From an uncultured delta proteobacterium (GTDB lineage Bacteria; Myxococcota_A; Polyangia; Fen-1088), in assembly GCA_963796685.1 (NCBI GenBank), contig CAWCMR010000014.1, forward strand, positions 64,001 to 128,000: 64,000 bases of DNA. The letters are read 5' to 3'. The notes below the pieces were generated by a model. The model did no database searches, was not told where the DNA came from, and saw only the letters and a list, made by a program, of their open reading frames with translations. This document shows positions 35,459 through 57,498 of this stretch, piece after piece (within the stretch, counting starts at the first letter, position 1; every line of letters begins with the position of its first letter). A program made the translations under genes and the position numbers.

Positions 35459-37280
35459 GTGTGCAAAACAGAGCTTCGTAGCGTTATTTTAGCGGGCCTA
35501 CTCTTCGGCTGGGGCTGCAGCTCGGGCAGCGCTGGCGGTGGTTCAGGCGGCTCCGCGGGGTCTGGAGGATCCTCCCCAAGCAATGGAGGATCAGGTGGCG
35601 CATCCAGCGGTGCGGGCGGGACGACATCGAGCGGTGGAACGACCTCATCCGGCGGAAGCCAGGGCGCTGGCGGCACGACCTCCAGCGGGGGAGCGACGAC
35701 CTCGACAGGCGGAAGCTCGGCTACGGGCGGCAAGACGAGCGCGGGTGGTGCGCCAGGCTCGGGCGGGGCAACCTCCGCGGGCGGCGTGACAGGCAAGGGG
35801 GGCGCGACGGGTGATGGCGGCGTGACGGGTGCTGGCGGCGTGACGGGTGCTGGCGGGCTGACGGGTGCTGGCGGCGTGACGGGCGCTGGCGGCGTGACGG
35901 GCGCTGGCGGCGTGACGGGCGCTGGCGGCGTGACGGGCGCTGGCGGCGGCACCTCGACTGGTGTGACGGTGCAGCTCGATAGCACGAAGCAGACCATTGA
36001 GGGGTTTGGCCTCAACACCGCTTTGGGAGGTGGCACCGTTCCCTGGGACTCCTTCTACGGTTCAAACGGCCTCGGCTTCAACATCGTGCGTGTCGGAATG
36101 ACTTCGAACGGTAGCCTTTCGGGCAGCATTCCGGCGGCCAGCTACAACGCGAAGGTCATCGGTTCAGTCTGGACCGCGCCCTCCAATTGCAGGACCAACG
36201 TTCCATCAAACGGCTATGGTCTCTGGGCACTTCGAGCACGAGCTGCTACGACTCGTTCTCGACGACGGTAGCCAACTTCGCGAAGAACCAGAAGATCTAC
36301 GCGATGTCGGCGTCGAATGAGCCCGAATTTCAGTCGTGTGGCAAGGCCATCGGTCCGCCGTGCAACAGCGACTACGATACGATGCTCTATACCGCCAACG
36401 AGATGGTGGCTTGGGTCAAGGTGTTGGGACCGAAGCTCCACGCTGCTGGCGTGAAGTTGATTGCCCCCGAGCCATCAGAGTGGATACACCTGTGGAGCAA
36501 CATGTCCGCTACGGGCTCCACTGTGGCCAGCCATCCGAACAGCTCTGACCCGCTGAACTGTGGATGCTTCGGAAATGATCCGGTGCACTACGGGGTGCGC
36601 CAGCACGTGTACTCAGGGCAACGGCTACGACTACGGTCACTGGCTCGCCAAGGACGCGACGGCTTGGCCCTTGATCGACATCATCGGGACGCACGAGTAC
36701 GATTCCCAGAAAGCGGAACCGTGGCCGGCTGATGTCGACGGCGGCCAGCGAACCAAGCCGATCTACGAGACCGAGGTATCCGGCGTGATGTACTGGCCCG
36801 AGCAGGGGCCGTCGAGCGATATCAAGAATGGTATCGCGGTTGCCGGATGGGTTCACTCGGCGATGGTGGTTGGAGAGGCTTCGGCGTGGCTCTATTGGTG
36901 GTACCAGCAGAGCAGCGACAACGAAGGCTTGGTGCTCACGGCCAACACCATGACCAAGCGCTGCTACACCATTGGCAACTACAGCAAGTTCGTACGCCCC
37001 GGCGCCGTCATGGTAAGCGTCGCGGGTAACACCAATACAGAACCTGCTGCTTTCGGCCTTCACGGGTACAGACGGCACCATCGTCGTGGGTATCAACAAG
37101 GGCACCAAGGATCTCACCGTTCCGATTGCGATCAGCGGTGGTACGGCGCCGGCCTCGTGCACGCCCAATGTGACATCGGCGAGCGACAACCTCAAAGCGG
37201 GCACCGCTGTCACCGTGACTGGCGGCAGCTTCAGCGCATCGTTCGCCAATCAAACGGTCACCACGTACGTCTGCAAGTAG
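35459..37280 (+). pseudogene. GH30 glycoside hydrolase lipoprotein with Gly-rich linker, 3 frameshifts
   Basis: Frames 35399-36271, 36187-36732, 36560- and 37086-37280 join into a paralog of 46098-47930 (SNEPE, HEY, YETEVSG, WLYWW, GNYSKFVRPG). Confidence 0.85.
35816..35941 (+). repeat. 18-bp coding tandem repeat, 7 copies (GGVTGA)
   Basis: GGCGGCGTGACGGGYGCT units inside the linker. Confidence 0.9.
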
Positions 37281-37303
37281 TCAGACTTCGCCAAGGAGCT
37301 GCG

Positions 37304-37340
37304 AAGGCCATGCGGGTGATCAGATCCGCATGGCCTTTTT
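37304..37340 (+). terminator. Intrinsic terminator
   Basis: AAGGCCATGCGG..CCGCATGGCCTT followed by TTT. Confidence 0.8.
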
Positions 37341-37570
37341 CCTGTCAGGTGGACGGCGATCCCACACTTCCCCGGTGTGGCGAATCATGCGCTCCATGGG
37401 GCCGGCGAACGACCCGGAGCTTGCGCACACGGCGGCTTCGTCGACGCCTGACAAGGTGTCTCGGCTATAGCCACGCCCCCCGGGGAGCCCGATCGATGAC
37501 CCGAGAGACTCGTCTTGCTAGTACCCTGACCGAGGCGTCGTGCTCTCGGGTTGCAGCGATAGGTTGAGCA

Positions 37571-39204: not shown

Positions 39205-40660
39205 CATAGGTAGGATCTTAATTCCTCAATGAAATCGATCACTTACTGAACGGATGTTCAAGGTAGTTGCAGAAGACACAGGAATCCTCCTACACATTCG
39301 TTTGCGAAGACAAACGCGAGGAGGTTCCCTGTGCCCAAGAGAGACATTGCCACAATCGAGGCGGAGACACTCAGCCAAAAGCTACAGCAGGTTCTCAGCG
39401 ATGCCGAGGTGGAGAAGGTGGCTCGCCGGTGTGGCTTTCTTCGACGGCGCCGTGAAATCGCCCCGGCCGCGCTTCTTATAGCCTGCATCTCGGCATTGGG
39501 GGCAGGCACGGCTGCGTGGCTCGCGGACATCCTGCGCGCCTTCAACGCGTTCACCGGCAAGGCTGTTCGCTACAAGCCTTTCCACAACCAACTGAGCAAA
39601 CGGCGATTCCCCATCTTCATGCACGCCATTCTCGAACAGGCGCTCGCGAAGCTGACGGCACCTGTGCTTGAGAGTTTGCCCAAGGGCAAGCTGGCTCAGT
39701 TCTCGGAGATCCTGTGCCATGACGGCACCTCGTTTGCGCTCAAAGACACTCTGGCCAGAAAGTGGCCCGGCCGCTTCACGAAGGTGACCCCAGCGGCAGT
39801 GGAGCTCCACGTAACCATGAGCGTCTTGAGGGACAATCCCGTCGCCATTACGCTGGCCCCTGACAAGGAAAGCGAACGCCCATTCGCCCCCAAAGCGGCG
39901 TCTCTCAAAAATCGCCTGGTCCTCGAGGACCGTGGATTCGAGGATCGCGTTGTCTTTGCAGACACTCTCGACGCCGGAGGATTCTTCATCGTTCGCGGCA
40001 AAAAGAACAGCCGACCAATCATCCGAAGTGCTCGCGACAAGAATGGCAGGCGTATCCCTCGTCTCGAGGGCAAGCGACTCAAGTGGCGTGTACTGCCTCG
40101 TCATACGGTCGACCTAGAAATCGAGTGGAAGATCAACGCCCGCAGGACCTACTGTGGTCGTCTCGTTGCCATCTACATCGAAGGAAAACGCAACAAGAAG
40201 GGCTACACCTATCTGCACACGAATCTGTCGAGAGCGACCTTCACCGCTCACGAAGTAGGCAGAGTCTACAGACTCAGATGGCAGATTCAGCTCCTCTTCA
40301 AGGAATGGAAGTCCTACGCAAATCTCCACAAATTCGACACGGCCAAGTCACCCATCGCCGAGGGCCTGATCTGGGCAAGCCTGCTTGCCGCGACCATCAA
40401 ACGAGCGCTCACCCACGCCGCAGAACACGCATGCGGTATTCCACTGTCCACCCAGCGCGCAGCCTGCTCTGCCAAGCATTTCCTCGACGCGATCCTGCTA
40501 TCCATCCTCGAATCTGCCGCGCAGCTCCTGTCGCATATCCGTTCTGCCTTCACTTTCCTCGCGGAAAACGCACCTCGTGCGCATCCCAAACGCGATCAGG
40601 GAATGGGGCGCCTTGCGATGGGATTACGCCATTCCGCCACCGCTTAAGTACCTACCTATG
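39205..40660 (+). mobile_element. IS4-family insertion sequence (1456 bp)
   Basis: 17-bp IRs CATAGGTAGGATCTTAA / TTAAGTACCTACCTATG. 10-bp TSD AGGCCGTTCT at 39195-39204 and 40661-40670. Confidence 0.93.
39331..40647 (+). CDS. IS4-family DDE transposase
   Basis: HDGTSF, EDRGF, YRLRWQIQLLFKEWKS (YREK-like motif, with Q where the catalytic E is normally found). Confidence 0.92.
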   Translation: MPKRDIATIEAETLSQKLQQVLSDAEVEKVARRCGFLRRRREIAPAALLIACISALGAGTAAWLADILRAFNAFTGKAVRYKPFHNQLSKRRFPIFMHAILEQALAKLTAPVLESLPKGKLAQFSEILCHDGTSFALKDTLARKWPGRFTKVTPAAVELHVTMSVLRDNPVAITLAPDKESERPFAPKAASLKNRLVLEDRGFEDRVVFADTLDAGGFFIVRGKKNSRPIIRSARDKNGRRIPRLEGKRLKWRVLPRHTVDLEIEWKINARRTYCGRLVAIYIEGKRNKKGYTYLHTNLSRATFTAHEVGRVYRLRWQIQLLFKEWKSYANLHKFDTAKSPIAEGLIWASLLAATIKRALTHAAEHACGIPLSTQRAACSAKHFLDAILLSILESAAQLLSHIRSAFTFLAENAPRAHPKRDQGMGRLAMGLRHSATA

Positions 40661-40785
40661 AGGCCGTTCTAGCACCACTTTGCTTTCAATGTCCGGTAAG
40701 AAACATTACGTCAATTATGTGGCCTATTTCTCGGGGATGTAGGTGTCCGCCGGCCGGAGCATGCCGGTGCAGAGCCTGATTGGGA

Positions 40786-41305
40786 TCAACGGACGGAAGT
40801 GGGCGCGGCCGAGCGAAGCTCCTTGAGGTCGTCTCTGGCCTGTTCGAGACCCCGAGCAAGCAGCCGGGCTCTGTGGCCGGAAGGCCCCTCGCAGAGGTTC
40901 TTCGTGATCCAGAAGATCACGCTCTGAACGAGGGTGACGGGATCTCGGTCCACGGCGTGTGCCAGGTCGCCGCATGGAAGCTGGTAGCGATCGGCGATGC
41001 GGCTGAGGGCCTTGCCGACCCGCAAACCCGTCCGGCGCATGACGAAGAGGCCCAGGGCAATTGTCGTCCCGGCTTGCTTGAGGCGCGTCTGCAGCTCTTG
41101 GTCGATCACGGACGGCAGGGGGTGCGGCAGATAGTCCGGCTTTTGGGGCAGATCGCGGGACAGGATGAGCGCGCGCCCCGGAGCCGCGATCAAGCTGTGT
41201 TCCCACAGCCAGTCGAGATAGGTACGGAGGTTGACCAGCCAGCAAAACCGAGTGGTCGGATGGAGGCCACGCTCGTGCAGCTCTTGGCTCCAGGTAAGGC
41301 ACACG
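40786..41305 (-). pseudogene. Tyrosine recombinase remnant (continues at 44705-44800)
   Basis: LRTYLDWL..LPHPL..RRTGLRVG with the downstream catalytic region deleted. Reads through in frame when the 41306-44704 element is removed. Confidence 0.75.
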
Positions 41306-41482
41306 TGTTGTTTCTCACGTAGTTCCACCGCCTGCTTCTCACGGATGTTCGTGATGGGCGGGACGCCATTTCCCAGATTGGGAGGCGCGTTGATTGGCGC
41401 AGGGGCGGTGGCGTAAAGCCAAAGCCCCGACGCCGATGAGATCGGTGCCGGGGCCTTTGGTGATGGGACGGGTGGCGACGTG

Positions 41483-41794
41483 TCAGAAGTTCAAGTAGTC
41501 GCCTTCTGGCTCTGGGTTGAGGGCAAGCTGTCGGTAGTCTTTGATGGCGGCACGGAGGTCGTGGATACGGACGCACAGGTGGTTGGCCTTGCACGCCTCG
41601 GGGGATGGCAGGTCGCCTCGTGCGAGGGACTCAAGGTCGAGGTCTGGATGCTCGGCCATGAGCTGGTAGGCGGCCGTGGCCAAGGTGGCGTCGAGCGCGG
41701 CAAGGACGCCGAGCTCGGGTGCGATTGCCAGTTCGTTCGGGGTGGGCCGCAGGAGCGGCTGGTTGTGCTCGGGCAGCCAGGTCGCGGTCATCAT
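41483..41794 (-). CDS. Small helical accessory protein of the transposon
   Basis: ATGA overlap with the ATPase stop and GAGG RBS. MMTATWLPEH..PELGVLAALDATL..DYLNF. Confidence 0.65.
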   Translation of the reverse strand: MMTATWLPEHNQPLLRPTPNELAIAPELGVLAALDATLATAAYQLMAEHPDLDLESLARGDLPSPEACKANHLCVRIHDLRAAIKDYRQLALNPEPEGDYLNF

Positions 41795-42588
41795 GACACC
41801 TCTGCGAGCGTGGCCTGCACGTGCTCGGCGGTCACCACCTTGGCGCGAGCCAGGGCAGCGGCGAGGAGCGCGTGATGGGCGAGCAAGTTCACCTTGCGTG
41901 GCAGGCCCTGGGTTGCCTGGAACACGGCTTCGACGGCGGCGGGTTCCAGCAGTGGCAACTCGGTGCCGGCCAGGCGCAGGAGGTGCACGAGGTACGGTCC
42001 GATTTCGTCGCGGCCGAGGCCGGCCACGTGGTAGCGGACCACGATTCGCTGCGAGAGCGCCTCGTAGGCCGCCATGCCCAGCCGCCGGCGTAACTCGGCC
42101 TGGCCGACGAGCAGCAGGCAGAGCCTGTTCTCTGCGTCCATCTGGTAGTTGGTGAGCAGGCGCAGATCCTCGAGCACCTCGGAGCGCAGGTTGTGGGCTT
42201 CGTCGACGATGAGGATGGGGCGGCAGCGGGCCTCGGCACACAGGCGGGTGACCTCGTTCTTGATCTGGCGGTAGAGCGCGGCCCGGCTGCGCTCGGTAGG
42301 CAAGCCCATCTCCCAGGCGATGGTTTTGTACAAATCCATCACATTGCCGGTGGAGAGCGAGACGTAGACGACGCGGTACAGACCGGCGTGCAGAGCAGTC
42401 ACGACTTTGCGACAGGCGCAGGTTTTGCCGCTGCCACTCTCGCCGGTGACCAGGCCGATGCCACGCATCTCGATGAGATGGCCCAGGCGGGCCTCCAGCT
42501 CTTTGCCGGCGGCTGATACAAAGAGGTCGTTGGGCTCGATCTCTTTTCCGAAGGGGTGGCGGGTGAGGCCGAAATGCTTGCGGTACAT
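41791..42588 (-). CDS. ExeA-like AAA+ ATPase (transposition helper)
   Basis: MYRKHFGL..PF, GESGSGKT, LIVDEAH, LLVGQ, ALSQRI, GLPRKVN. Confidence 0.92.
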   Translation of the reverse strand: MYRKHFGLTRHPFGKEIEPNDLFVSAAGKELEARLGHLIEMRGIGLVTGESGSGKTCACRKVVTALHAGLYRVVYVSLSTGNVMDLYKTIAWEMGLPTERSRAALYRQIKNEVTRLCAEARCRPILIVDEAHNLRSEVLEDLRLLTNYQMDAENRLCLLLVGQAELRRRLGMAAYEALSQRIVVRYHVAGLGRDEIGPYLVHLLRLAGTELPLLEPAAVEAVFQATQGLPRKVNLLAHHALLAAALARAKVVTAEHVQATLAEVS

Positions 42589-43800
42589 CAGCGACCTCCT
42601 TGCTTGGCTTCATCACCGTCGAAGTCGCGCAGGCGCAAGCCCGCGGGCGGCGTCTCGGGCGCGCGCGCTGGCTGCAGCGTCTTGCTGGCGTGGTCGCGCT
42701 TGACGAAGCAATTGGCGTAGGCGTCGACGGGCTTGGCCATGCCGACCTTGCGTCCGACGTGCCAGACCTCGACCTTGCGCTCGGGGCGCGTGGGGTCGAA
42801 GCGCAGCGTGACGGTTTGCCCGACGAGGATGGCATCGACTTCGTAGACGCCGCCGCGCAGGCTCACCGTTCGGTCGCGCGCGACCTTGCGTTTCTCCTCG
42901 AAGAGAAAGAGTGCGGCCAGATCGAGCCCCGGCTCGGGCAGGCGGACCTCGTCGCAGACCTGGGCCCAGCGATCGAGCGGCGTCTCGCCATCGAGACCCT
43001 TGTGCGGCCGGTGGTGATATTCACCTTCAACCCAAGCCCACAGGCGCCGATTGAGCGCCTCCAGGCTGGCGGTGTCCTTGGCGCCGAGCAGCGGGAGAAA
43101 CTGCATGCGTACCGTCCTGAAGAAACGCTCAATTTTTCCGCGTCCCTGCGGCACGTACGGCCGACTGTGGATCAGCGTGATGCCGAGCTTGGCGCGGTAC
43201 CACCCTCGTCGCGTCGTCGATGAAGGCGATGAGATACGTCTTGTGCCGTCGCTTCCCCTCGACGGTTACCGACACCGCGTGCATCACGTCACTCATCCAC
43301 AGCTCGTTCGCCTTCTCGAAGGCGAAGTGCCGCCGATCTTTGCTCGTCGGATCCTCGGGGCGCTTTTCCATCAGCCCCCGCCGCGACAGCAGGCGGTGGA
43401 CCGTCGCTGGCGCCAATTCCAGATCGGCTGGCACCTCGCCCGAGGCGCGTGCGGCATCGATCACCATCCGTACCGACAATTCCTGCTTGTCCTCCTTGAG
43501 CATGCACAGAAGGTCGGACACCTTCTGCGGGATCGCCCGTGCCTGCCCCTGATCCGCGCGCGGCTGCGGGCGCAGAGCCTCGAAACCGCCCTTGCGCCAC
43601 TCGCGTAACCAGCCGCGCATGGTCTCGGCCGCCACGCGGGTGCGGCGCGTCCCTGGGATCGCGTAGCTTTTCGACGCTTTGTCCTTGAGCCGGGCGTACG
43701 TCCCCGCTTCGCCCGGTTCCATGTGGGTCAGATCGGCAATCAATCCGTAGCGGAAGAGCGCCACATCCTCACGTCGGTCGGTCGTTGCTTCGGTCTTCAT
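42588..43800 (-). pseudogene. DDE integrase/Mu-type transposase with internal deletion
   Basis: HTH N-terminus, LWMSDVMH..IDDATR, junction near 43195, then LIHSRPYVPQGRGKIERFF and a Mu-C-like tail. Confidence 0.88.
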
Positions 43801-43843
43801 CGTTTTCCTCCTCGGACCCCGTGCTTGGGGTCGCCCCAGACCA

Positions 43844-44473
43844 CTACCGGCTTGTGCGCGGCGGGTCCGGCCCCGTTCCCTGTTGGCTGCGCCTTCGCTT
43901 TCGCCACCGCCGCTTTGGCCGTGGCCCGAATCCGAAAGGAGGCGCCAGCGTCCCCAGATGCGCCGCCCCGATCTCCCGCAGCCGCATCAGCGCATGCTCC
44001 GTCCCGAGCACCTTGCGCACCGACCCCAGTCGAGGCTCGTTTCCGAGCCGCCCAGGCATCAGCGTCACCAGGGCCAGCAACGCCATCCGCACCGCCCCCA
44101 GCCGCCGCCGTACCCAGCGCACGGCCCCGGGCAGCTCGATGTCTGGCCGAATCCTTTCCGCCGCTTTCTCGATGCTCTCACCTGCCGCCACCTTGGCCTC
44201 CACGATGGCCACTACCTGCTCGACCTCGTCGAGACTTCCAGGTAGCCGACTCGCCAGGCAGTCCGGCAAAAGGCTGAAGGTGGTGTGTCCCGTCGGACAA
44301 TACCAGCGGGCGATCCGCATCCCGGCTGGCTCGACACGTGCGTACGTCCCGTGCCGCTCGAGATCGCAGTCCCCGCGAGGATGCAGCGGACATCGATCCA
44401 GCCTTGCCTCTTGCCAGCCCTTTTGCCTAACGTAGTCCTCGCTGGTGAGCGCCGTTCCCTGGCGCAGTTGCAC
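43844..44473 (-). CDS. Zn-finger/HTH-like accessory protein (DUF6431-like) of the transposon
   Basis: CPLH..C..HGTYAR..RWYCP..TFSLLPDCL. First gene of the element. Confidence 0.7.
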   Translation of the reverse strand: MQLRQGTALTSEDYVRQKGWQEARLDRCPLHPRGDCDLERHGTYARVEPAGMRIARWYCPTGHTTFSLLPDCLASRLPGSLDEVEQVVAIVEAKVAAGESIEKAAERIRPDIELPGAVRWVRRRLGAVRMALLALVTLMPGRLGNEPRLGSVRKVLGTEHALMRLREIGAAHLGTLAPPFGFGPRPKRRWRKRRRSQQGTGPDPPRTSR

Positions 44474-44950
44474 CGGCCACTGGCCCGCACGGCTCCAACC
44501 GTGGCGGGACTCTATTCTTGTCTATGGGTGTTCTTGCGGACGGGCACCATGCCCATCACCGGCCCCAGATTCACCCAACTTGCCCATCCCGCAAAGCCCC
44601 CACGCAACCCTGTCTCGAATTCTGCCCCCATCTCAGGCGAACCAACGCTGGCCCACTCCGCGATGCAACCGCCGGTGGATCACGAGACTACGTGAGAGCC
44701 AACAACACGGAACGATCGAGGTTTGCGATGGCGGTGTGCTGGTCATCAAGCCAGCGGTGGAACCGGCGCAAGACGAAACGATAACCTTGATTTGCTCGTA
44801 AAAACCCCGGTTTTCAGAAAGCCTGTCCGGTGGTGCTCTCGTGGAATTTTGGGTGCCCCGGCGTGGATCGAATGTGATCGTCCGGATAGGGTTCGCGCTA
44901 TTCTATGCTTCGGCGCATTCTTGACACGGATTTCGGCCGCAAAGCCGCAG

Positions 44951-46000
44951 TCAGCAGGCGCAGGTCGGAGTTGGATCGACGGCGGCGGCCACAGCTTGGG
45001 CCAGGTGGCCCACGTAGCGTTTGACGTTCAGGGCGAGCACCTTGAGGTGCACCGCCAGGGTGACCCGTGGTCGGCCTCGCACGCGCAGCTCGGCGAAGCC
45101 ATGGCATCGCTTCAACTCCGAGTTCGTGGCCTCGATGCCAGACCGGATCTTGTGCTGCTCCTTGAACTCCGGCGTTACCTGCTCCTGGCGTCGCTGCGCG
45201 ATTGCCACGTCGACGATTCGAAACGCGAAGACGAGCCGGTCACCACGACGCTGGACCGGACACTTGTCGCGAAGCGGGCAGCCATCGCAGCACTCGGCCG
45301 AGAAGATGGCCAGCCTGGTCAGCTTGCCAGGCTGCTCGTGCGCCATCGGCGCTTGCCCCATCGGACAGGTTAGCACCGTCGTCCGCGTCTGGTCGAAGTC
45401 GAAGTCACCGATGTTCGCGGTCTCTTCTGATCTGATGGTCCCTTCGACCCGATCGGCGCTCGCAGATCCGTCCCGCGCTCTTCGGCCCCGACGATGTTCT
45501 CGCCGCCCGCGTAGCCTGCGTCGGCGTATCGCGTTTCAGGCGTCGCCCCGCACGTCCGCGCCACCTGGTCGAGGACCGGCGACCGGCAGCACGTGCTGTT
45601 GGTCGCTCTCGTTGGCACCGTTCACGCTCACCGCGGTCACCACCTCGAACGGGTTGTTCTCGCCGCATGTCTCGACCAGCTGGGCCTCGTAGCCCTTGCC
45701 CTTGTAGCCATACGTCACGTCGGAGTCCGACGGGCTCTGCAGCGACGACGAGGACGGCTTCTCCTGCAGCTCGATCTGGACCGGCGCCTCCGTCGTCGGC
45801 GGTACGCACTGGTCGCGGTAGAGCCGCTGCAACAGAGCGAACGCTTCCATGCCCGAAACGGAGCGATGGTCTGATGCACGCGTAAATGCACCTCGCCAGC
45901 GACGGGACAACGGTGTCAAGGCTCGCGAAGCGACGGCCGAAGGCCGCTTGGCCTTGTCACCGTCGTCCGGCGCTGGCACCAAGAAATCGAAGGCATTCAA
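44951..46000 (-). pseudogene. IS1182-like transposase remnant
   Basis: Three frames: LQSPSDSDVTY..KGYEAQLVETC; ADAGY; CCDGCPLRDKC..RSGIEATNSELKR..LRVRG. N-terminus absent. Confidence 0.8.
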
Positions 46001-46097: not shown

Positions 46098-47930
46098 CTA
46101 CTTGCAGACGAACGTCGTGACCGTCGCCTTCGGCAGCGAAGCGCTGAACGTGCCGCCGGTTACGGTGACCGCAGTCCCTGCCTTGAGGTCGTCGGTCGAA
46201 GATGTCACGTTCGGCGTGCACGACGCTGGCGCTGTCCCGCCGGAGATGGCGATCGGCACCGTTGCATCAGCGGTGCCCTTGTTGATGGCCACGACGACCA
46301 CGTTGCTCGATCCCGTATAGGCGGAGAGCAAGAGATCCGCGTTGGAATTCCCCGTAATATCCACCCGCTTGTAGCCTGGTCGTACGAACTTGCTGTAATT
46401 ACCAATCGTGTAATGGCGCTTGGTATCGGTTCCGTCCTGCAGCCATATGCCTTCGTTGTCGTTGGTGCCGTTGCTGGACGCGGACATCGGCTGGTACCAC
46501 CAGTAGAGCCAGGCTGACGCATTGCCGGTCACGAGCGCGGAGTGAATCCACCCTGCCACCGCGACGCCGTTGTTGATATCACTGCTCGGCCCCTGTTCCG
46601 CCCACCACTTCACGCCGGACATCTCAGTCTGCCAGACCTCTTTCTTTGCCGCGGTAACATCGCTTGGCCAGGCGTAAGCCTGCTGCGAGTCGTACTCGTG
46701 CACCCCGACGATGTCGAAAGCGGCCCAGGCCGTCGCATCTGCAGCCAGGAAGTGGCCGTAGTCGTATCCTCCGCCCGTCGAGCACTTGCTGGCGCAACCA
46801 GTAGCGGTGAGAGTATTGCCGAAGCAACCGCAGCCCAGCGGGTCCGAGCTGTTCTTGCCCGAAACATCAGGACCGGCCGATACATTGGACCACTGGTGGT
46901 TCCATTCTGATGCTTCCGCTGCAATGACCTTGATGTTCTTTGCTTGGAGCTTGGGGCCTGCCACCTTTACCCAAGCCACAAACTCGGTGGCGGTAAAGGC
47001 CATCGTATCGTAGTCGCCGTTGCACGGGTCGCTCTTGCCACACGACACGAAGTCAGGCTCATTCGCGATGGACATGGCGTACAGGCCGGTGCTCGATGCC
47101 CAGCTGGCTATGGTCGTTGACCACGAATCGTAACAGCTCGATTTCAGGTGTCCGCCGTAGGTGCCGTCGGTATTGGTGCTGTCCCTGCAATTGGCAGGCG
47201 CCATCCAGACCGACCCAATGGCTTTGAAGTCACTGCCCGCAGCGCTCTTCGCTGCGGAGATATTGCTCGACTCCCCGCTGTTATAGGAGTTGCCATCGCT
47301 ACCCATGCCGGTACGCAGAATGGACAAGCCGATCCCGCTCGTCGGGCTGAAGAGTGAGGACGTTTTGGAGGACGGTATGGGTTGCCAATTATCGTTCATG
47401 CCAAACCCTTGGATGGTTTGCTCAGTCTGATCGAGCTGCACCGTCACGCCCGTCGAGGTCGAGCCGCCAGCGCCCGAGTCGACGCCAGAGCTGGTGCCGC
47501 CATCGCCGCTACCGCCGACGGCCGAAGAACCTCCTTTGCCCCCTGTCGAGCTTCCGCCCGCATTGCTCCCGCCAGCACCGCTGCCGCCAGCTGCCGAACC
47601 GCCCTTGCCACCAGCTGCACTTCCGCCAGCGTTGTTACCGCCGGCCTGCGAACCGCTGCTGCCTCCGGTCGCGCTGCCGCCAGCCTGCGAACCACCGGCC
47701 CCGCTCGTTGTTGTACCACCGGAATTGGCGCCGCCGGAGCCGCTGCTGCCACCCTTCGCCGTTGTTCCGCCTTGGCCGTTGCCACCATTGCCGGTGCTTC
47801 CGCCGTTTCCGCCGGCGCCACCTGAGGAGGTGCTGCCGCCCGTTCCCGAGGAGCCCCCGTTGTTAGAGCAGTTCACCATTACCATGGCGAGGACGGCGGG
47901 CCCGACTAGCAGCTGGCACGTGCGACGCAT
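46098..47930 (-). CDS. GH30 glycoside hydrolase (xylanase-like) lipoprotein with Gly-rich linker
   Basis: Signal peptide then C-SNN, QTIQGFG, GLSILR, ANEPD (acid/base), WQTEMS (nucleophile), AWLYWW, GNYSKFVRPG. Confidence 0.88.
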   Translation of the reverse strand: MRRTCQLLVGPAVLAMVMVNCSNNGGSSGTGGSTSSGGAGGNGGSTGNGGNGQGGTTAKGGSSGSGGANSGGTTTSGAGGSQAGGSATGGSSGSQAGGNNAGGSAAGGKGGSAAGGSGAGGSNAGGSSTGGKGGSSAVGGSGDGGTSSGVDSGAGGSTSTGVTVQLDQTEQTIQGFGMNDNWQPIPSSKTSSLFSPTSGIGLSILRTGMGSDGNSYNSGESSNISAAKSAAGSDFKAIGSVWMAPANCRDSTNTDGTYGGHLKSSCYDSWSTTIASWASSTGLYAMSIANEPDFVSCGKSDPCNGDYDTMAFTATEFVAWVKVAGPKLQAKNIKVIAAEASEWNHQWSNVSAGPDVSGKNSSDPLGCGCFGNTLTATGCASKCSTGGGYDYGHFLAADATAWAAFDIVGVHEYDSQQAYAWPSDVTAAKKEVWQTEMSGVKWWAEQGPSSDINNGVAVAGWIHSALVTGNASAWLYWWYQPMSASSNGTNDNEGIWLQDGTDTKRHYTIGNYSKFVRPGYKRVDITGNSNADLLLSAYTGSSNVVVVAINKGTADATVPIAISGGTAPASCTPNVTSSTDDLKAGTAVTVTGGTFSASLPKATVTTFVCK

Positions 47931-48289
47931 AGATTCCGACACAAAATTGCCTGTTCGCATGCGCGAAGTTTGGGCCAGAAGGCAATGCGGAGTCAAGAGA
48001 TCATGCGAGCTCAAGAGTGCGCATAAAATTACTATGATCTCCGTGCTTTTGGCAGGGATGGCGCGTTGCGGATCACCCTCTCGGAGCGTAAGAACAAACC
48101 GTCAAGAAATGGGAAGTGGCATCCAGAAATGCGAAAAATGCGTTGCGCACGGGCAAGGTGAGAAAAAATCGAAACTAACTTATGAAAACGCGATCTGAGA
48201 TCGCCCTAATGGGCATATAAACAGCGCAGTCGGTATGTCGCGCGCGGTGAAGCCACGGGCGAGCGGATGTTCTAAATAAGGATAGTGCA

Positions 48290-50215
48290 ATGAACACAGC
48301 ACGGAAATCGATCACCAGCGTCGGAATCGCGGTCCTCTTCGCGGCTTGCAGCTCAGGCGGGGGCCAGGGCGGGGGCTCTGGCGGCAGCCAGAGCGGCGGC
48401 TCGGGCGGAAACGAGAGCGGGGGCTCGGGCGGTAGCCAGAGCGGGGGCTCGGGCGGCAGCCAGAGCGGGGGCACGAGTGGCAGCCAGAGCGGTGGCTCGG
48501 GTGGCAGCCAGAGCGGGGGCTCGGGCGGCAAGGGGAGCGGTGGCTCGGGCGGTAGCCAGAGCGGGGGCTCGGGCGGCAACGCGAGCGGTGGCACCACTGC
48601 GAAGGGCGGAACGAGCGGCGGCGGCGCGGGCGGCAGTGCAGCCGGCGGCACGACGAGTAGCACGGGTGGCTCCAGCACGCCGAGCGGCGGCACGACCGGC
48701 CCGGGTGGCAGTCAAAGCGGTGGCGCGACAGGCGCGGGTGGTGATTCGTCGCCCGGTAGCGGCGGGACCACAACCCCCTCGACGGTCCTTGTAACGTCTG
48801 CTAGCGGCGCCTACTGGAAGACCGGTACATGGACCGAGGTGACCAGCGGGAGCGCCACGGTTACGGTCAATGATACCTCGACCGCGCAGAACTGGGAAGG
48901 CTTCGGCGGCGCCTTCAACGAATTGGGGTGGACCGTTCTGACCTCGGCCACCATGCAGACTCAGGCCTTGACCTTGCTCTTCAGCCCCACCGATGGTGCA
49001 AACTTCACCATGGGGCGAATCCCGATGGGAGCGAGCGACTACGCCACCAGTCGCTACACCGACGACGACGGTTCGTGGACCGACGTCAATGCCAGCAGCG
49101 GCACGCGCCAGCCTGCGGACACGTCCATGGCAAATTTCTCGATCGATAGAGACAAAAAGAATCTGATCCCCTACATCAAAGCGGCGATGGCGATCAAATC
49201 CGATATTCGTTTCTGGGCCAGTCCGTGGACGCCACCGGTGTGGATGAAGAGCGGGTACAATTCCAACCAAGCTGGCAGCATGTCCGGCTGGAAGCCGTCA
49301 TTCTACGATGGCGGCAACATGAGCAGCGACTCTGGAACCTTGACGGCCTACGCCCAGTACTACACGAAGTTCGTGCAAGGGTACAAGGATCAGGGCATCA
49401 ACATCGAGCTCGTCTCGCCCCAGAACGAGCCAGGTTATGAGCAGAACTACCCGTCGTGCCTCTGGGACAAGACCACCTACGTCAGCTGGGTCAAGACTCT
49501 CGGGCAGGCCATGAGCAGCATCGGCGTCAAGGTCATGCTGGGTACGCTGTCGAATAATGGCGACACTGTTGAAGGCGTCAAGAGGACAGACCTTGACATC
49601 GCGTCTGCAGTGCTAGCCGATAGCACCGCGAAGGGCTTGGTCACGGTCGTCGGCGTCCAATGGGGCATACTCGACGCGGTGAACAAAGGTCAGACGTTCC
49701 AAGGGCTGCCCGTCTGGGCCACCGAGCACAAGTGCGGCAACTATCCGTGGAATCCCTCTGGCTCTCCTACGTACAACAGCACCCAGGCGCCCAACGATCA
49801 GGCGTACGGGGTGGAGAGCTGGGGCTACATCCGAGACGCGATCACAAAGGGAAAAGTGACGGCCTACAACGCCTGGAACATGGTCCTCGACAAGTCCGGC
49901 CTGGGCATCGACACGTCTCGTGATTGGAAACAGGATGCGTTGTTGGTGGCGAATTCGGGAAGTGTTACCGCAACGCCCGCCTACTATGTCTTCCGTCACG
50001 TCTCGCAGTACGTGCAGCCCGGCGCCACCGTGGTTGGCACCTCCGGCGGCGATGCAGTCGCCTTCAAGAACCCGGACAACAGCCTGGTTGCGGTCGTCTA
50101 CAACTCTGGCGCCGAGAACAAGAGCTTCATCGTCAAGATTGGTGGCAAGATGCTCCAGTTCGACATGCCCGGTGACAGCAAGGGCGCCTGGGCCACCATC
50201 AAGTACGGCCCGTAA
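48290..50215 (+). CDS. GH30 glycoside hydrolase (beta-1,6-glucanase/glucosylceramidase-like) lipoprotein
   Basis: FAA-C lipobox, GGSQSGGS repeats, EGFGGAFNE, RIPMGASD, ASPWTPPVWMK, QNEP, WATE, WNMVLD, AFKNPD. Confidence 0.9.
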   Translation: MNTARKSITSVGIAVLFAACSSGGGQGGGSGGSQSGGSGGNESGGSGGSQSGGSGGSQSGGTSGSQSGGSGGSQSGGSGGKGSGGSGGSQSGGSGGNASGGTTAKGGTSGGGAGGSAAGGTTSSTGGSSTPSGGTTGPGGSQSGGATGAGGDSSPGSGGTTTPSTVLVTSASGAYWKTGTWTEVTSGSATVTVNDTSTAQNWEGFGGAFNELGWTVLTSATMQTQALTLLFSPTDGANFTMGRIPMGASDYATSRYTDDDGSWTDVNASSGTRQPADTSMANFSIDRDKKNLIPYIKAAMAIKSDIRFWASPWTPPVWMKSGYNSNQAGSMSGWKPSFYDGGNMSSDSGTLTAYAQYYTKFVQGYKDQGINIELVSPQNEPGYEQNYPSCLWDKTTYVSWVKTLGQAMSSIGVKVMLGTLSNNGDTVEGVKRTDLDIASAVLADSTAKGLVTVVGVQWGILDAVNKGQTFQGLPVWATEHKCGNYPWNPSGSPTYNSTQAPNDQAYGVESWGYIRDAITKGKVTAYNAWNMVLDKSGLGIDTSRDWKQDALLVANSGSVTATPAYYVFRHVSQYVQPGATVVGTSGGDAVAFKNPDNSLVAVVYNSGAENKSFIVKIGGKMLQFDMPGDSKGAWATIKYGP

Positions 50216-53541: not shown

Positions 53542-54831
53542 TCAGTGCAAGGCTGGGACGGTGGCGTCCGCGTAGCGGGCCGGATCCTGAATGAATCGAT
53601 CGCGGCACAGATCGCTGCAAAAATAGTATGTCTTGCCCTGGTACTCGGAGCGGGCGGCGGCATGGTAGCGGTGGATCTTCATTCTGCACACCGGGTCTTG
53701 CACCTCGACGTCGGCCTCTGCGCGGGTGGGTAGCACCTTCGCTGCTCCATCGGTGGCGACGAGCGCATGCAGATAGGAGACCAAGTCGTCGACCTCGGGC
53801 TCCGTCAGGTAGTCGCGGTACGAGGGCATGAGCGGGTCGTAGCCGGAGACGACCTGGTCGCCGGGATCGAGGATGGACCGCCGCAGGTAAGCGTCATCGG
53901 CCGAGACGGTGGCTCCGCCCACCATCCGCACTGTCCGGCCGGCCAAGCCGTCGAGCGAAGGCCCGGTCTTGAGGTCGGCGTGGCATCCTCGACAACCCAG
54001 GGTTTGAAACAAGCCCAGCCCGCGCGAGGCTGCGGACGTTTCGGGCTTCTTCTCGTTCGACTTGGTGACGCCTTTTGCCATCGCGGCGGCGTCCGCGTCG
54101 AGCATGGTGGCATCGGCCACCAGGCGCAGAACGGCTTTGTCGTCCAGGCTGCCGTAGACACCGCGGACTTGCCCGCGACGGTCGACCAGGAAAAGGAGCG
54201 ACGTGTGCAGGATCGGCTCTCGCGGAATATTGGTGTGCTCGAACGGCACCTTCATGGCTTGGGCGAATTCGGTTATCTGGGCCGCAGGGGGACGTAGGAG
54301 CAGCCAGCGCGGATCGGCGTTCCACTTGGCGGCGTAGGCCTTCAGCACCTCCGGCGTGTCGTGGTCGGGATCGATCGAGAACGACACGAAGCGAAGGTCC
54401 GCCGACGGTATCGCCCTTCTGAGCAGGCTCATCTTGGCCGTGATGATCGGACACATGGTCGTGCACCGGGTGTAGATGAAGTCGGCGATCCACACGTGCC
54501 CGCGCAAGGCCGACTCGTCCATCACCTGCCCCTCGGTATCGACGAAGGCGAAGGGAGGTACGTCCCCCAGAGTGGGCAAAGATCGGCGGGCATGCGGTAC
54601 CGGATGCGCGATCCGAATCGCGCGCGAGACTACGAGCGCGATCCCCAAGAGCGCTGCAAAGCCGCAGGCCCCCAAGGCCAGGAGACTCTTCGGCGCGACC
54701 CGCCTGGGCCGGGACGGCGAGGGGTGCTTCAGCGTCGTTGCCGTCGCCGTCGCCTTCGCAGCATGACCAACGCGCCGAGCATCGCGGTGCTGACGAACCA
54801 AGAAGCTCCGCCGCTGGCAGAGATGTCGCAC
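53542..54831 (-). CDS. SCO1/SenC - cytochrome c - YHS fusion protein
   Basis: TM anchor; FIYTRCTTMCP plus ILHT (SCO Cu site); CRGCH..LMPSY (heme c); DPVC.M..YYFCSDLC..F..DP.RY (YHS). Start uncertain. Confidence 0.88.
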   Translation of the reverse strand: MRHLCQRRSFLVRQHRDARRVGHAAKATATATTLKHPSPSRPRRVAPKSLLALGACGFAALLGIALVVSRAIRIAHPVPHARRSLPTLGDVPPFAFVDTEGQVMDESALRGHVWIADFIYTRCTTMCPIITAKMSLLRRAIPSADLRFVSFSIDPDHDTPEVLKAYAAKWNADPRWLLLRPPAAQITEFAQAMKVPFEHTNIPREPILHTSLLFLVDRRGQVRGVYGSLDDKAVLRLVADATMLDADAAAMAKGVTKSNEKKPETSAASRGLGLFQTLGCRGCHADLKTGPSLDGLAGRTVRMVGGATVSADDAYLRRSILDPGDQVVSGYDPLMPSYRDYLTEPEVDDLVSYLHALVATDGAAKVLPTRAEADVEVQDPVCRMKIHRYHAAARSEYQGKTYYFCSDLCRDRFIQDPARYADATVPALH

Positions 54832-55931
54832 CCGCCCGACCCGGTCTTGGCGGGCGCGCCCATCCCAGTGCTGGCCGATGTACCCGTCGAGCCGCTCGTT
54901 CCGCCCGCGCTGCCACCCGAGTCCGTCCTGCCTCCTGAGCCCGTCAGCCCTCCGGCTCCGGCGCCCCCGCCACCCTCGGTGGTGCCGCCCGTCCCCGCGC
55001 TGCCTCCTGAGCCCGATCGCCCTGCGGAGCCAGCACTCCCGCCCTCGCCAATGGTACCACCGGAACCTGGGCCACCGCCCGAGCCGGCCGTGCCCCCAGC
55101 GCTGTTGCTGCCGCCTTTGCCGGTGGTGCCGCCGGAACCCGCGCCACTGCCCGAACCGGCCGTGCCCCCAGCTCCGCTGCCGCCGCTTCCACCGGCCCCG
55201 ATGCTCGAGCCACCACCCCCACCCGAGCCGCCGCCGGCTCCGCTGGCGTCGGAGAGACCGGTCGATGCATCTTTTGCAACCGACGCATCCGCCGAATCGT
55301 TACCGCCGTCGGGGGACGATCCTGTCGAGATGTCCGCGCAGTGATGATAGTAGCAATCGTTGGCCGGGTGATCGGTCATCACCATGATGACCTGAAGGGT
55401 GCACGGCTGCGCGCTGGTGCAAGTCGCGCTCTTCGGAATCGTGACCTGGAATGTTTGATTGCCGCTCTGTTGCGTCGTCGCGGTCGAGCCGGCCGGCAAG
55501 CCATCGGCGATGACGGGCTGGGTCGGCGACCAGACTGGATCCTTCATGATGGCGGGCGTGCAATTGGTGCCTGCCTGGGCCTGCGGATCGGGCAGCGACG
55601 AAAGGGTGTGCGTCGAGCTCGCTCCCTCGACCAGTGCGATGCGAAACCAGCCCGGGTGCGTGACGGTCACCGTGATGGAGACGGGAACCGTCTGACCGGA
55701 TTGAAGCACGGTCACCGTCTTGGTCGGAGTGCCGGCAGAGTCGCCCAAGGCGGTGTTGGGCTGTGCCGCGCAAGGTCCGTTCTTCTGCGGACCACCGACG
55801 GAATCTTGCGACATCCAACTCGCCGGAGAGTCGATCTTGAAGTGGGCGTGCGCCGTGGATGGTATCCACGCCGCGCCAAAGGCCAACCACGGCACGAACG
55901 AATACTTCCGAGTCCAAGCCCGACACGCCAT
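54729..55931 (-). CDS. LPMO-like His-brace protein (myxobacterial SCE4755-like) with Gly linker and MYXO-CTERM
   Basis: Signal AHA|HFKIDSP giving His1, PQK.GPC, THPGWFRIAL, CTLQVI, YHHCADI. Tail GSGGC-TM-RRRRRR. Confidence 0.8.
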   Translation of the reverse strand: MACRAWTRKYSFVPWLAFGAAWIPSTAHAHFKIDSPASWMSQDSVGGPQKNGPCAAQPNTALGDSAGTPTKTVTVLQSGQTVPVSITVTVTHPGWFRIALVEGASSTHTLSSLPDPQAQAGTNCTPAIMKDPVWSPTQPVIADGLPAGSTATTQQSGNQTFQVTIPKSATCTSAQPCTLQVIMVMTDHPANDCYYHHCADISTGSSPDGGNDSADASVAKDASTGLSDASGAGGGSGGGGGSSIGAGGSGGSGAGGTAGSGSGAGSGGTTGKGGSNSAGGTAGSGGGPGSGGTIGEGGSAGSAGRSGSGGSAGTGGTTEGGGGAGAGGLTGSGGRTDSGGSAGGTSGSTGTSASTGMGAPAKTGSGGCDISASGGASWFVSTAMLGALVMLRRRRRRQRR

Positions 55932-56001
55932 GACTACGTTGGACGCCGCAGTCGCCGGAAGGTTTCCGGATCTCGTGCGCGTCCTTGGCCGATCGATTTG
56001 G

Positions 56002-57132
56002 TCACCCACCTACGCGGGCGAGAAACTGCTGCCGTCGATCCTCGCTCCAGCGCGCGCAATAGGCCGGCCTCTGCTCGACAATGCGCTTGGTGCAAAGCGT
56101 GCACGAGGGTTGGCAGGGGTTGATGGCCTCCACGACCTCGCCGCGCGCTTTGCGTGGCCACAAGGGATCTGCAAAGAGCACGCGGCCCAGCCCCACCAGA
56201 TCCGCCTTGCCATCGCGAAGCGCGGACTCGGCGATGGCCGGGTCTTGGATGCGACCGGCGGCAATGACCGGAATATGGGGAAGGGCCTGCTTGATCGCGT
56301 GGGCGAAGGGGACCAAGAAGGCCTGGTTGCGATCGTCCGCCAGGTAATTCGGCGAGGCGAACGAGTCGTAGCAGCCGGCCATGACCGAGAGATAGGCGAC
56401 GCCCGCCTGGGCCAGCCGCTTGGCGAAGGGCAGGGTGTCGGCCAGGGTCAGGCCCCCGGGAACGTATTCGTCGGCCAAAAAGCGATAGCCCACGGGATAG
56501 TCATCGCCCACCGCTGCGCGGACTGCGCCGACGACGTCGAGGGGAAAGCGCATTCGCCGTTCGGCGTCGCCGCCGTAGGCATCCTGGCGCAGGTTGGTTC
56601 GCGGGGATAGAAATTGGGGTAACAGATAGCCGGTGCCGCCGTGCAGCTCCACGGCGTCGAACCCGGCCTGCCTCGCGCGAAGGGCACCGGCCGCGAAAGC
56701 GGTGAGCGTCGTTTCGATGTCGGTCTGCTCCATGGCCTTGGGCACCGCTCCCCACGTGGGAAAAGCGGACGGCGCCACCCGATCGGGACGCTTGGCATAT
56801 CGTCCGGCGTGATGGATCTGCAACACCGCCTTGGCGCCGCCGCCTCGGATGGCCGAGGCCAGGCGCGCAAGCCCGGCAACGAAGCGATCGTCCTGGTGTT
56901 CGTCGGTGGTCAGCAGCGTGCGCGGATTGCCGAGGCCGCGCGGCTCGACCGTCGTGTTCTCCACCACCACCATGCCCACACCCGACTCGGCCATCTCGGC
57001 ATAGTAGTCGAGCACGAGATCGTTCACCTGGTGATCCGGGTCGGGGTACGCCAGGTACATGGGCAGACTGACCAGGCGGTTTTCGAGCCGCAGCTGGCCG
57101 ATGCGCAGGGGAGTGAAAAGAAGGTTCGTCAT
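56002..57132 (-). CDS. NADH:flavin oxidoreductase (Old Yellow Enzyme-like)
   Basis: LFTPL..LENR, LQIHHAGR, GFDAVELHGGTGYL..QFLSP.TN.R.D.YGG, ADLV.LGR..ADP. Confidence 0.92.
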   Translation of the reverse strand: MTNLLFTPLRIGQLRLENRLVSLPMYLAYPDPDHQVNDLVLDYYAEMAESGVGMVVVENTTVEPRGLGNPRTLLTTDEHQDDRFVAGLARLASAIRGGGAKAVLQIHHAGRYAKRPDRVAPSAFPTWGAVPKAMEQTDIETTLTAFAAGALRARQAGFDAVELHGGTGYLLPQFLSPRTNLRQDAYGGDAERRMRFPLDVVGAVRAAVGDDYPVGYRFLADEYVPGGLTLADTLPFAKRLAQAGVAYLSVMAGCYDSFASPNYLADDRNQAFLVPFAHAIKQALPHIPVIAAGRIQDPAIAESALRDGKADLVGLGRVLFADPLWPRKARGEVVEAINPCQPSCTLCTKRIVEQRPAYCARWSEDRRQQFLARVGG

Positions 57133-57141
57133 GGAGCGCGC

Positions 57142-57498
57142 CTAGCCGACGCCCAGCAGCTGGACCTCGAACAGCAACGTGGCATTCGGGGGGATGACGC
57201 CTCCGGCGCCGCGCGCGCCATAGCCCAGATTCGATGGAATCAGCAGCGTGCGCTTGCCTCCGATCTTCATGCCGACGACGCCCTCATCCCATCCCTTGAT
57301 GACCTGTCCCGTGCCCAAGACGAACTCGAAGGGATCGCCCCGATCGAGCGAGCTGTCGAACTTCTTTCCCTTCGCGTCGTTTGCCCACAGCCACCCGGTG
57401 TAGTGCATCTGGCAGGTCACCCCGGCCACGGCCTCCGCGCCCGTGCCCAGGGTGGTGTCTTCGAATTGCAGCCCGCTTGCGGTGATGGTCATGCTCAT
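57142..57498 (-). CDS. FKBP-type peptidyl-prolyl isomerase
   Basis: [37 protein letters not shown]. Confidence 0.96.

Follow-up and report, generated by a model that had tools for sequence, protein, structure and literature searches.

What does a predicted copper chaperone with its own haem do directly behind the gene of a surface protein that resembles lytic polysaccharide monooxygenases (LPMOs)? The question is raised by a 64,000-nucleotide stretch of DNA, here called the window, from an uncultured delta proteobacterium (GTDB lineage Myxococcota_A; Polyangia; Fen-1088; GenBank assembly GCA_963796685.1, contig CAWCMR010000014.1, positions 64,001 to 128,000). A first reading of its letters (the original prediction) had proposed four close or overlapping minus-strand genes, encoding an FKBP, a flavin oxidoreductase of the old yellow enzyme (OYE) type, a secreted protein starting with a histidine (His1) and a membrane-anchored SCO-cytochrome c-YHS fusion. 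All four open reading frames were recovered, and their Pfam and NCBIfam identities agree with that proposal. Comparison with related genomes indicates that the last two genes are a real, conserved and lineage-restricted two-gene unit, predicted to be an exported cuproprotein plus its own SCO.

The SCE4755-SCO gene pair

The His1 protein (P0001) is a full member of NF043005, described by NCBIfam as the SCE4755 family of polysaccharide monooxygenase-like proteins, a hypothetical equivalog, and is encoded once in the genome. The start of the fusion gene (P0002) is uncertain, the candidates being GTG 54831, TTG 54801 and CTG 54732, the last of which overlaps the SCE4755 stop. The features of the unit are as follows.

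55942..55967, minus strand: promoter-like element GGAAAC-N16-CGTC, conserved, just before the SCE4755 start (present in 16 of the 127 SCE4755 upstream regions)
54729..55931, minus strand: SCE4755-family His-brace (LPMO-fold) protein P0001, 400 aa, ATG at 55931 (NF043005, 100.4 bits against a cut-off of 75)
55845..55931, minus strand: predicted signal peptide ending in AHA, cleavage of which would expose His1 (codon 55842-55844)
55323..55844, minus strand: LPMO-fold domain, 174 residues (alignments, AlphaFold2, fold search)
55656-55658, minus strand: codon of His63 (LPMO-fold domain alignment)
55347-55349, minus strand: codon of Tyr166 (LPMO-fold domain alignment)
54837..55322, minus strand: Gly/Ser/Thr-rich linker, varying in length among orthologues
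54732..54836, minus strand: MYXO-CTERM-like tail with GC, hydrophobic stretch and Arg run (TIGR03901, 12.4 bits)
53542..54831, minus strand: SCO-cytochrome c-YHS fusion P0002 in its longest frame, which overlaps the upstream gene's stop (PF02630/PF00034/PF04945)
54604..54690, minus strand: single N-terminal transmembrane anchor, residues 48-76 in the longest frame (19-residue hydropathy windows reach 2.57)
54166..54558, minus strand: SCO1/SenC domain with CxxxCP and distal His (PF02630; CxxxC at 54451-54465)
53764..54027, minus strand: mono-haem c-type cytochrome domain with CxxCH and Met, of the caa3 subunit II type (PF00034)
53563..53703, minus strand: YHS domain, DPVCxM ... FCSxxC, optional (PF04945)

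Co-location of the two genes was borne out beyond the window. The fusion lies directly behind SCE4755 in nine other genomes of the order, from two genera, and the hosts are a group of uncultured soil and peat myxobacteria. Among GTDB loci chosen by hand, the pair was present in 10 of 14 with an SCE4755 identity of at least 62% and in none of 55 that were more distant, with no domain match at one additional locus. A set of 49 metagenome loci, 19 of which were dropped for having less than 600 nt downstream, yielded the pair in 6 of the 19 close loci and in none of the 11 distant ones. Where the metagenome loci were unpaired, homologous sequence was found just past the SCE4755 stop, followed by unrelated genes. 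Approached from the SCO side, SCE4755 stood directly upstream in 9 of the best 80 genome loci (duplicates of loci counted before included), exactly those in which the fusion was 59-82% identical to P0002; the remaining 71 SCO-cytochrome c(-YHS) loci were at most 52% identical.

Trees of both partners gave the same picture. SCO-linked SCE4755 domains occupied 16 of 22 rows in one clade (support 95); outside this clade they held none of 87 rows, 20 of which were uninformative with less than 500 nt downstream. Linked fusions filled all 14 rows of one clade (support 99) in an 88-row tree, from which four loci, two of them linked but frameshifted, had been left out, and no member of this clade was found apart from SCE4755. 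Both trees were built by a quick method, with Shimodaira-Hasegawa-like approximate likelihood ratio tests (SH-aLRT) as the only support. The trees mirror each other, and pairwise identities of the two partners correlate (Spearman 0.86, 14 pairs), a result that co-inheritance alone would also yield. The fusion is split by a frameshift in genomes G036 and G073, possibly through assembly error.

The SCO domain begins 122-190 nt past the SCE4755 stop in 18 of 18 paired loci (three of them identical), and the two genes stay adjacent at identities as low as 65% and 53%, amid turnover of every other neighbour. Taken together, the sequences point to one origin, long retention and several losses of the pair. 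The original prediction had also associated the two genes with the FKBP and OYE genes and with a GH30 glycan-degradation island. FKBP, GH30 and a downstream TPR-like gene were found in none of 18 other paired loci and OYE in two, one of them inverted, by which a four-gene module and a GH30 link are ruled out. The two upstream genes are local neighbours outside the unit.

56002-57132, minus strand: OYE-type flavin oxidoreductase (PF00724, E 3.8e-65)
57142-57498, minus strand: FKBP-type prolyl isomerase (PF00254, E 4.9e-35)

Elsewhere in the window, transposase genes and fragments (DDE, AAA, HTH) are clustered at 39331-46000, between a fragment called GH30-like from sequence likeness (36575-37564) and two GH30 genes (46098-50215).

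The unit probably starts at the GGAAAC-N16-CGTC element, because this element is conserved just before SCE4755 in close relatives; 15 of its 16 carriers are close relatives of the window's SCE4755 gene, with or without SCO. We take it to be of the extracytoplasmic function (ECF) sigma type. It was not enriched genome-wide (with spacer 16 there were 50 core matches, with other spacers 41-68), and a regulon search with the upstream motif found no second genome site that scored close to the native one. A sigma-70 promoter scan returned 0 sites, and terminator-like stems (5 against 2.1 +/- 1.6 in shuffles) were not significant. The pairs of the second genus (g12, L074-L079) have a different upstream motif in common, TGGCGCAGAAT-like and without a constant -12, which presumably resembles a sigma-54 -24 element. 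Read-through of the SCE4755 stop into the SCO frame was rejected as a conserved mechanism, the genes sharing a frame in four pairs and not in 14 of 18. No single-chain SCE4755-SCO fusion was found among proteins of 701-2000 aa, a weak negative given that the same search missed the 727-aa protein P0163 described below.

Fold and predicted copper site of the SCE4755 protein

The translation contains the AHA/H junction, THPG and YHHCAD motifs, Gly linker and GC-hydrophobic-Arg tail that had been noticed in the letters. The protein has the family's His1, HPG, CxLQ and YxxCAD motifs and its C-terminal sorting tail. His1 and the two Ala preceding it are retained in 90% or more of the 150 sequences aligned, and from this A-x-A-H pattern we infer signal cleavage before His1. 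The tail resembles MYXO-CTERM in its features, but its score falls below the TIGR03901 cut-off of 20 bits. Among five orthologue tails, three passed (L075-L077, 20.7-30.9 bits), one scored 19.2 and one, at an approximate position, gave no match.

AlphaFold2 modelled the mature 174-residue domain with a mean local confidence (pLDDT) of 96.7. A VIA fold search with this model returned an AA15 LPMO (5msz, Z 11.4), an AA10 LPMO (5wsz, Z 11.2) and the X325 protein LaX325 (6ibh, Z 10.9); the best 22 rows were all LPMO or LPMO-like (Z 8.0-11.4), and Foldseek concurred. Profile searches with the protein and the model of its mature domain agree on an LPMO fold, and the sequence has His1, His63 and Tyr166. 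His1 and His63 each occur in 148 of 149 homologues and Tyr166 in 146, the latter aligning with the axial Tyr of AA9 and AA13. The protein shares with AA15, AA10, AA9, AA11 and AA13 LPMOs (e.g., TdAA15A 5msz, BtLPMO10A 5wsz and PcGH61D 4b5q) the fold, His1, the second His and a Tyr three residues ahead of the CAD cysteine. The similarity to TdAA15A spans 139 aligned residues (root-mean-square deviation (rmsd) 3.3 A; profile E 2.2e-8).

LPMOs usually carry a second-sphere Gln or Glu, of the AA9 type, two residues ahead of the axial residue. SCE4755 proteins differ from known LPMOs at this position, which holds Cys in 111 of 149 homologues (Cys164 in the window) and Tyr in 29, and their identity to these enzymes is at most 22%. 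By sequence, the protein is LPMO-like but fails this one usual LPMO feature. Another loop might supply a substitute, for example the conserved Gln20. Gln20, Lys21, Met156 and His159 are nearly invariant in the family alignment and are candidates for an alternative second sphere, and Gln151 is invariant in the LPMO-fold domain. Asp158 occurs in 35 of 35 close and 17 of 114 other homologues; since it is invariant in the former, and His159 nearly so family-wide, either could be a fourth copper ligand.

The domain also resembles X325/Bim1, with which it shares a small LPMO fold (rmsd 3.1 A over 126 aligned residues for 6ibh), the His brace and a C-terminal membrane tether. Unlike X325, in which an Asp on a Gly-rich loop is described as the fourth ligand (PMC7529816), SCE4755 keeps a Tyr at the axial position. 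The X325 structure 6ibh was matched by neither profile in alignments meant to place its Asp. The window's domain matches LPMO_10 and not BIM1-like in a Pfam scan: PF03067 (AA10) gave 22.3 bits for the whole protein and 25 for the mature domain (cut-off 23; partial coverage), and PF20238 (X325/Bim1) gave no match at E<=0.05, a threshold at which 60 of 150 family members match it. Because X325/Bim1 have both fold and brace, and the cited sources report no polysaccharide activity detected for them (PMC7924993, PMC7529816), these two features do not imply activity. Polysaccharide cutting by the SCE4755 protein, as judged from fold and motifs, is putative rather than established.

The family was matched in 70 of 89 genomes of the order and in 58 of 301 sampled genomes of the phylum (E<=1e-12), and 1,648 clusters at 50% identity match its profile at E<=1e-10, a number in which related LPMO-fold families may be counted too. 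Close homologues with a named source carry the labels Polyangia or Polyangiaceae, which makes a myxobacterial host probable. Within NF043005 at large, only the window's subclade is linked to SCO-cytochrome c. Most members share Glu59, His66, Gln/Glu154 and a His after the DG motif (alignment A2); in the window's subclade the first three are jointly swapped for hydrophobic residues and the last is missing, which could be the loss of a buried network or of a second metal site. No carbohydrate-binding module was found in 10 longer members scanned. Two proteins (P0226, P0263) fuse the domain to long Ig-like or S-layer-like regions, with one member of their clusters named from Thermoanaerobaculia, and at locus L171 a second, partial SCE4755 gene lies in tandem downstream of the first.

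The SCO-cytochrome c fusion and oxidase genes

The anchored three-domain fusion was found as proposed, with Pfam matches to PF02630 (E 1.9e-24), PF00034 (E 1.1e-4) and PF04945 (E 2.5e-16) behind one N-terminal hydrophobic stretch; paired orthologues have a similar stretch ahead of the SCO domain. The SCO domain has the CxxxCP motif, distal His, thioredoxin fold and anchor of SCO1/SenC proteins, with both Cys and the His invariant in 14 aligned fusions and a Foldseek match to Bacillus Sco (4hde, E 1.9e-14). The closest solved haem domain is the cytochrome c domain of a caa3 subunit II (1w2l; profile E 7.4e-22, rmsd 1.6 A), and CxxCH and a distal Met are invariant in alignments A3 and A5, as in class I cytochromes c. 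This domain accompanies SCO in all 88 fusions, mostly without an LPMO-like neighbour. YHS was found in every one of the 4 same-genus pairs but in none of the 6 from genus g12. When SCO and cytochrome c were modelled with AlphaFold2, the global confidence (pTM) of 0.88 despite a disordered linker suggested that the two domains pack on each other.

The original prediction had argued from the lack of oxidase genes in the window. A tblastn search found no match to cox1 or cox2 there or in the nine paired loci L071-L079, a result compatible with action in trans. As an argument this says little, because the genome holds six PF00115 matches, one of them in an aa3 operon that has an SCO to itself (the second in the genome), and sister fusions lie beside cox operons. 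A caa3-type operon on contig C7 had no SCO in the 12 kb examined (the aa3 and caa3 labels are our reading of the translations). Cox1 was found near a second SCO in three of five paired genomes checked. Whether SCO fusions of this kind belong with cox genes elsewhere was answered in part: 4 of 7 unpaired SCO-cytochrome c fusions in the order adjoin cox1, and none of the nine paired loci L071-L079 does. Among the 80 genome loci, about 5 were near cox genes and about 6 near CopC, CusF, TonB receptors or multicopper oxidases (scan of 121 out of 225 cluster representatives, heuristic gene calls, E<=1e-13).

Loci L081-L083 and L085 encode longer SCO-cytochrome c fusions with an extra N-terminal domain of ~150 aa, divergent to cox1; at L085 the operon then continues with cox3, a pyrroloquinoline quinone (PQQ) dehydrogenase, cytochrome c and cox2. 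The caa3-type/cytochrome b operon occurs twice in the window's genome (G000 C7:47-5426 and C11:212357-216893) with near-identical starts and a broken C11 copy, reflecting either a duplication or a binning artefact.

Proposed copper loading before export and the competing readings

We favour, at a probability of roughly 0.42, a reading in which the fusion is an accessory, inner-membrane-anchored copper loader of the SCE4755 protein in the periplasm before export. The two genes would be expressed as a unit from their own promoter. The SCE4755 protein would be exported by Sec, lose its signal peptide and so expose His1, fold in the periplasm while held at the inner membrane by its MYXO-CTERM tail, and then be moved to the cell surface by a route assumed from that of Myxococcus xanthus. 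The fusion would sit in the same membrane with its SCO, haem and YHS domains in the periplasm. SCO would take copper via Cys-x-x-x-Cys and His and, still ahead of export, pass it to the copper-free histidine brace. The haem would most likely control, within its own chain, whether the SCO copper or dithiol is oxidised or reduced; YHS would be an optional extra metal site. The fusion may be a dispensable accessory for low-copper habitats. The accessory role is proposed because the dependence is one-sided, with the clade's fusions always behind SCE4755 and SCE4755 often without a fusion.

Pseudomonas putida mcoA-PP_3183 and Streptomyces Sco-GlxA are similar in that an SCO serves, or is proposed for, an exported non-respiratory copper enzyme, and PP_3183 is reportedly an SCO-cytochrome c fusion according to Banci and colleagues. 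They differ in that the client here would be a mononuclear His brace and the fusion has a caa3-type haem and an optional YHS. PP_3183 comes directly after mcoA, on its downstream side, and a role as McoA chaperone has been proposed for it (PMC13689576); Sco is reported to supply GlxA, and a role has been suggested for it with the Streptomyces LPMO LpmP (PMC9040799). Sco proteins are described as mattering chiefly at low copper (PMC7558416, PMC9145763). The brace is said to bind copper only once the signal has been cleaved (PMC10952591), and MYXO-CTERM proteins are described as folding while anchored at the inner membrane, then passing through type II secretion to the surface (PMC11980579). Because an inner-membrane SCO would meet its partner only between cleavage and export, loading fits this topology and continuous electron supply does not. 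The original prediction had offered both functions: loading is backed by the conserved pair and the SCO precedents, while electron supply appears doubtful on topology.

Several points weigh against copper loading. The SCE4755-SCO link has a single origin, the SCE4755 gene often lacks the fusion, and neither the 55 distant GTDB nor the 11 distant metagenome SCE4755 loci have an SCO neighbour. Co-divergence after one origin may be plain co-inheritance. Most of the 71 other SCO-cytochrome c(-YHS) loci, from several phyla, have unrelated and variable neighbours, and the caa3-type operon on C7 could be the real client of the fusion. Stability constants of ~1e9 to >1e12 are given for copper in His braces (PMC10952591), and with such affinities these proteins may need no chaperone.

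An unlikely alternative is copper scavenging, in which the SCE4755 protein would bind copper at the surface without catalysis, as fungal Bim1/X325 do, and the fusion would receive copper for oxidases encoded elsewhere; copper would flow from brace to SCO, or both would merely answer the same copper shortage. Bim1 is itself tethered to the membrane. The tie of X325 with true LPMOs in the fold search, the BIM1-like matches in part of the family, the replaced second-sphere Gln/Glu, the possible fourth ligand at Asp158 or His159 and the cox1 neighbours of unpaired fusions all suit such a role, and Bim1 is described as a copper-uptake protein (PMC7924993, PMC7529816). Of 59 unpaired SCE4755 loci (205 of 206 representatives scanned), 5 lay near CusA-like resistance-nodulation-division (RND) pumps, four of these from one genus and some with CopB or MerT-HMA, and only 3 near glycosidases. 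Yet the axial-position Tyr typical of LPMOs is kept, the window's domain matches LPMO_10 rather than BIM1-like, no outer-membrane importer is linked to the pair, and direct hand-over of copper from a surface protein to an inner-membrane SCO is impossible. The di-haem fusion of another SCE4755 lineage, described below, suggests redox chemistry instead.

Divergent SCE4755 genes were seen within heavy-metal islands at L127, L128, L129, L131 and L089, with three copies in G239; the islands carry CusA/CusB-like genes, CopB with a probable multicopper oxidase, and MerT-HMA. In G066 an OEP/CusB-like pair (L076:13606-16418) lies ~4 kb from the paired locus.

It is improbable that the fusion merely hitch-hikes, that is, that a free-standing SCO-cytochrome c-YHS gene landed behind SCE4755, is read from its promoter and has been co-inherited without acting on it. 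The single origin, the repeated losses and the highly variable neighbours of the fusion family across phyla would be expected from such a history. Against it stand the fact that both partners are copper proteins, the gap of less than 200 nt that persists to 65% and 53% identity amid neighbour turnover, and the linked SCO clade never being found away from SCE4755.

Equally doubtful is a bolder variant of loading, in which SCE4755 proteins would be unrecognised surface-anchored bacterial LPMOs with a non-canonical second sphere and the fusion a maturase that loads copper and delivers it reduced via its own haem. If true, the same functions would have been recruited a second time, convergently, in SCE4755-di-haem fusions and an SCO beside one of them. 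These fusions belong to a separate lineage, in which the P0163 frame (with six 727-aa cluster members) joins an SCE4755 His1 domain through an internal MYXO-CTERM and a second lipoprotein-like signal to an uncharacterised di-haem c-type domain; P0163 has no solved relative at E<=0.1. The frame is probably a polyprotein and an independent SCE4755-cytochrome link. It was found in 4 of 89 genomes of the order, one copy being frameshifted and two cut by contig ends (L276 in G059:C403; L277 and L318 in G063:C9 and C17; L278/L311 in G055:C637; L280/L312 in G068:C18). Upstream of the di-haem fusion in G055 (L311:1109-4709) are an octa-haem cytochrome, two genes away, and a 137-aa gene, and divergently TMEM175 and a plain SCO; in this one case a plain SCO is located three genes away from an unrelated SCE4755 gene. 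Proteins of ~1,300 aa at L284, L285 and L286, which have two further CxxCH motifs, also end in this di-haem module, and at L286 it follows an internal MYXO-CTERM-like tail in a protein unrelated to SCE4755.

Least probable is that the haem reduces the brace copper of a true LPMO, either before export in the periplasm or with the protein staying at the inner membrane: a c-type cytochrome is reported to reduce and activate bacterial LPMOs (PMC8981238), and the P0163 lineage and the octa-haem cytochrome near L311 are in line with this, but the outer membrane would part the two proteins after export (PMC11980579), the haem domain belongs to the caa3 subunit II type and travels with SCO in 88 of 88 fusions, and the di-haem module also occurs in the unrelated L286 protein and showed no SCE4755 link in the 301-genome class sample. 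The Cellvibrio japonicus protein Cbp2D (CjX183) is likewise a c-type cytochrome, for which a role as the redox partner of a bacterial LPMO has been proposed (PMC8981238). It differs from the present case, where one chain combines the haem with SCO, an N-terminal helix serves as anchor and the gene is directly coupled to that of the LPMO-like protein.

Each part of the system is already known: SCE4755 by name only, SCO for non-respiratory enzymes, and a cytochrome reducing a bacterial LPMO. The family name SCE4755 occurred in no paper of the open-access library searched. No paper on the SCE4755-SCO pairing was found in a search of mainly open-access literature, and supplementary tables of comparative Sco or LPMO surveys may still contain it. 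A single origin and frequent losses limit the link, its hosts are uncultured and the activity is putative. Copper supply of bacterial His-brace proteins in vivo is usually credited to free copper in the medium (PMC10952591). The conserved, directly coupled SCO-cytochrome c gene offers a concrete pair in which copper and electron transfer could be studied, and the pair is a functional lead for SCE4755, a large family.

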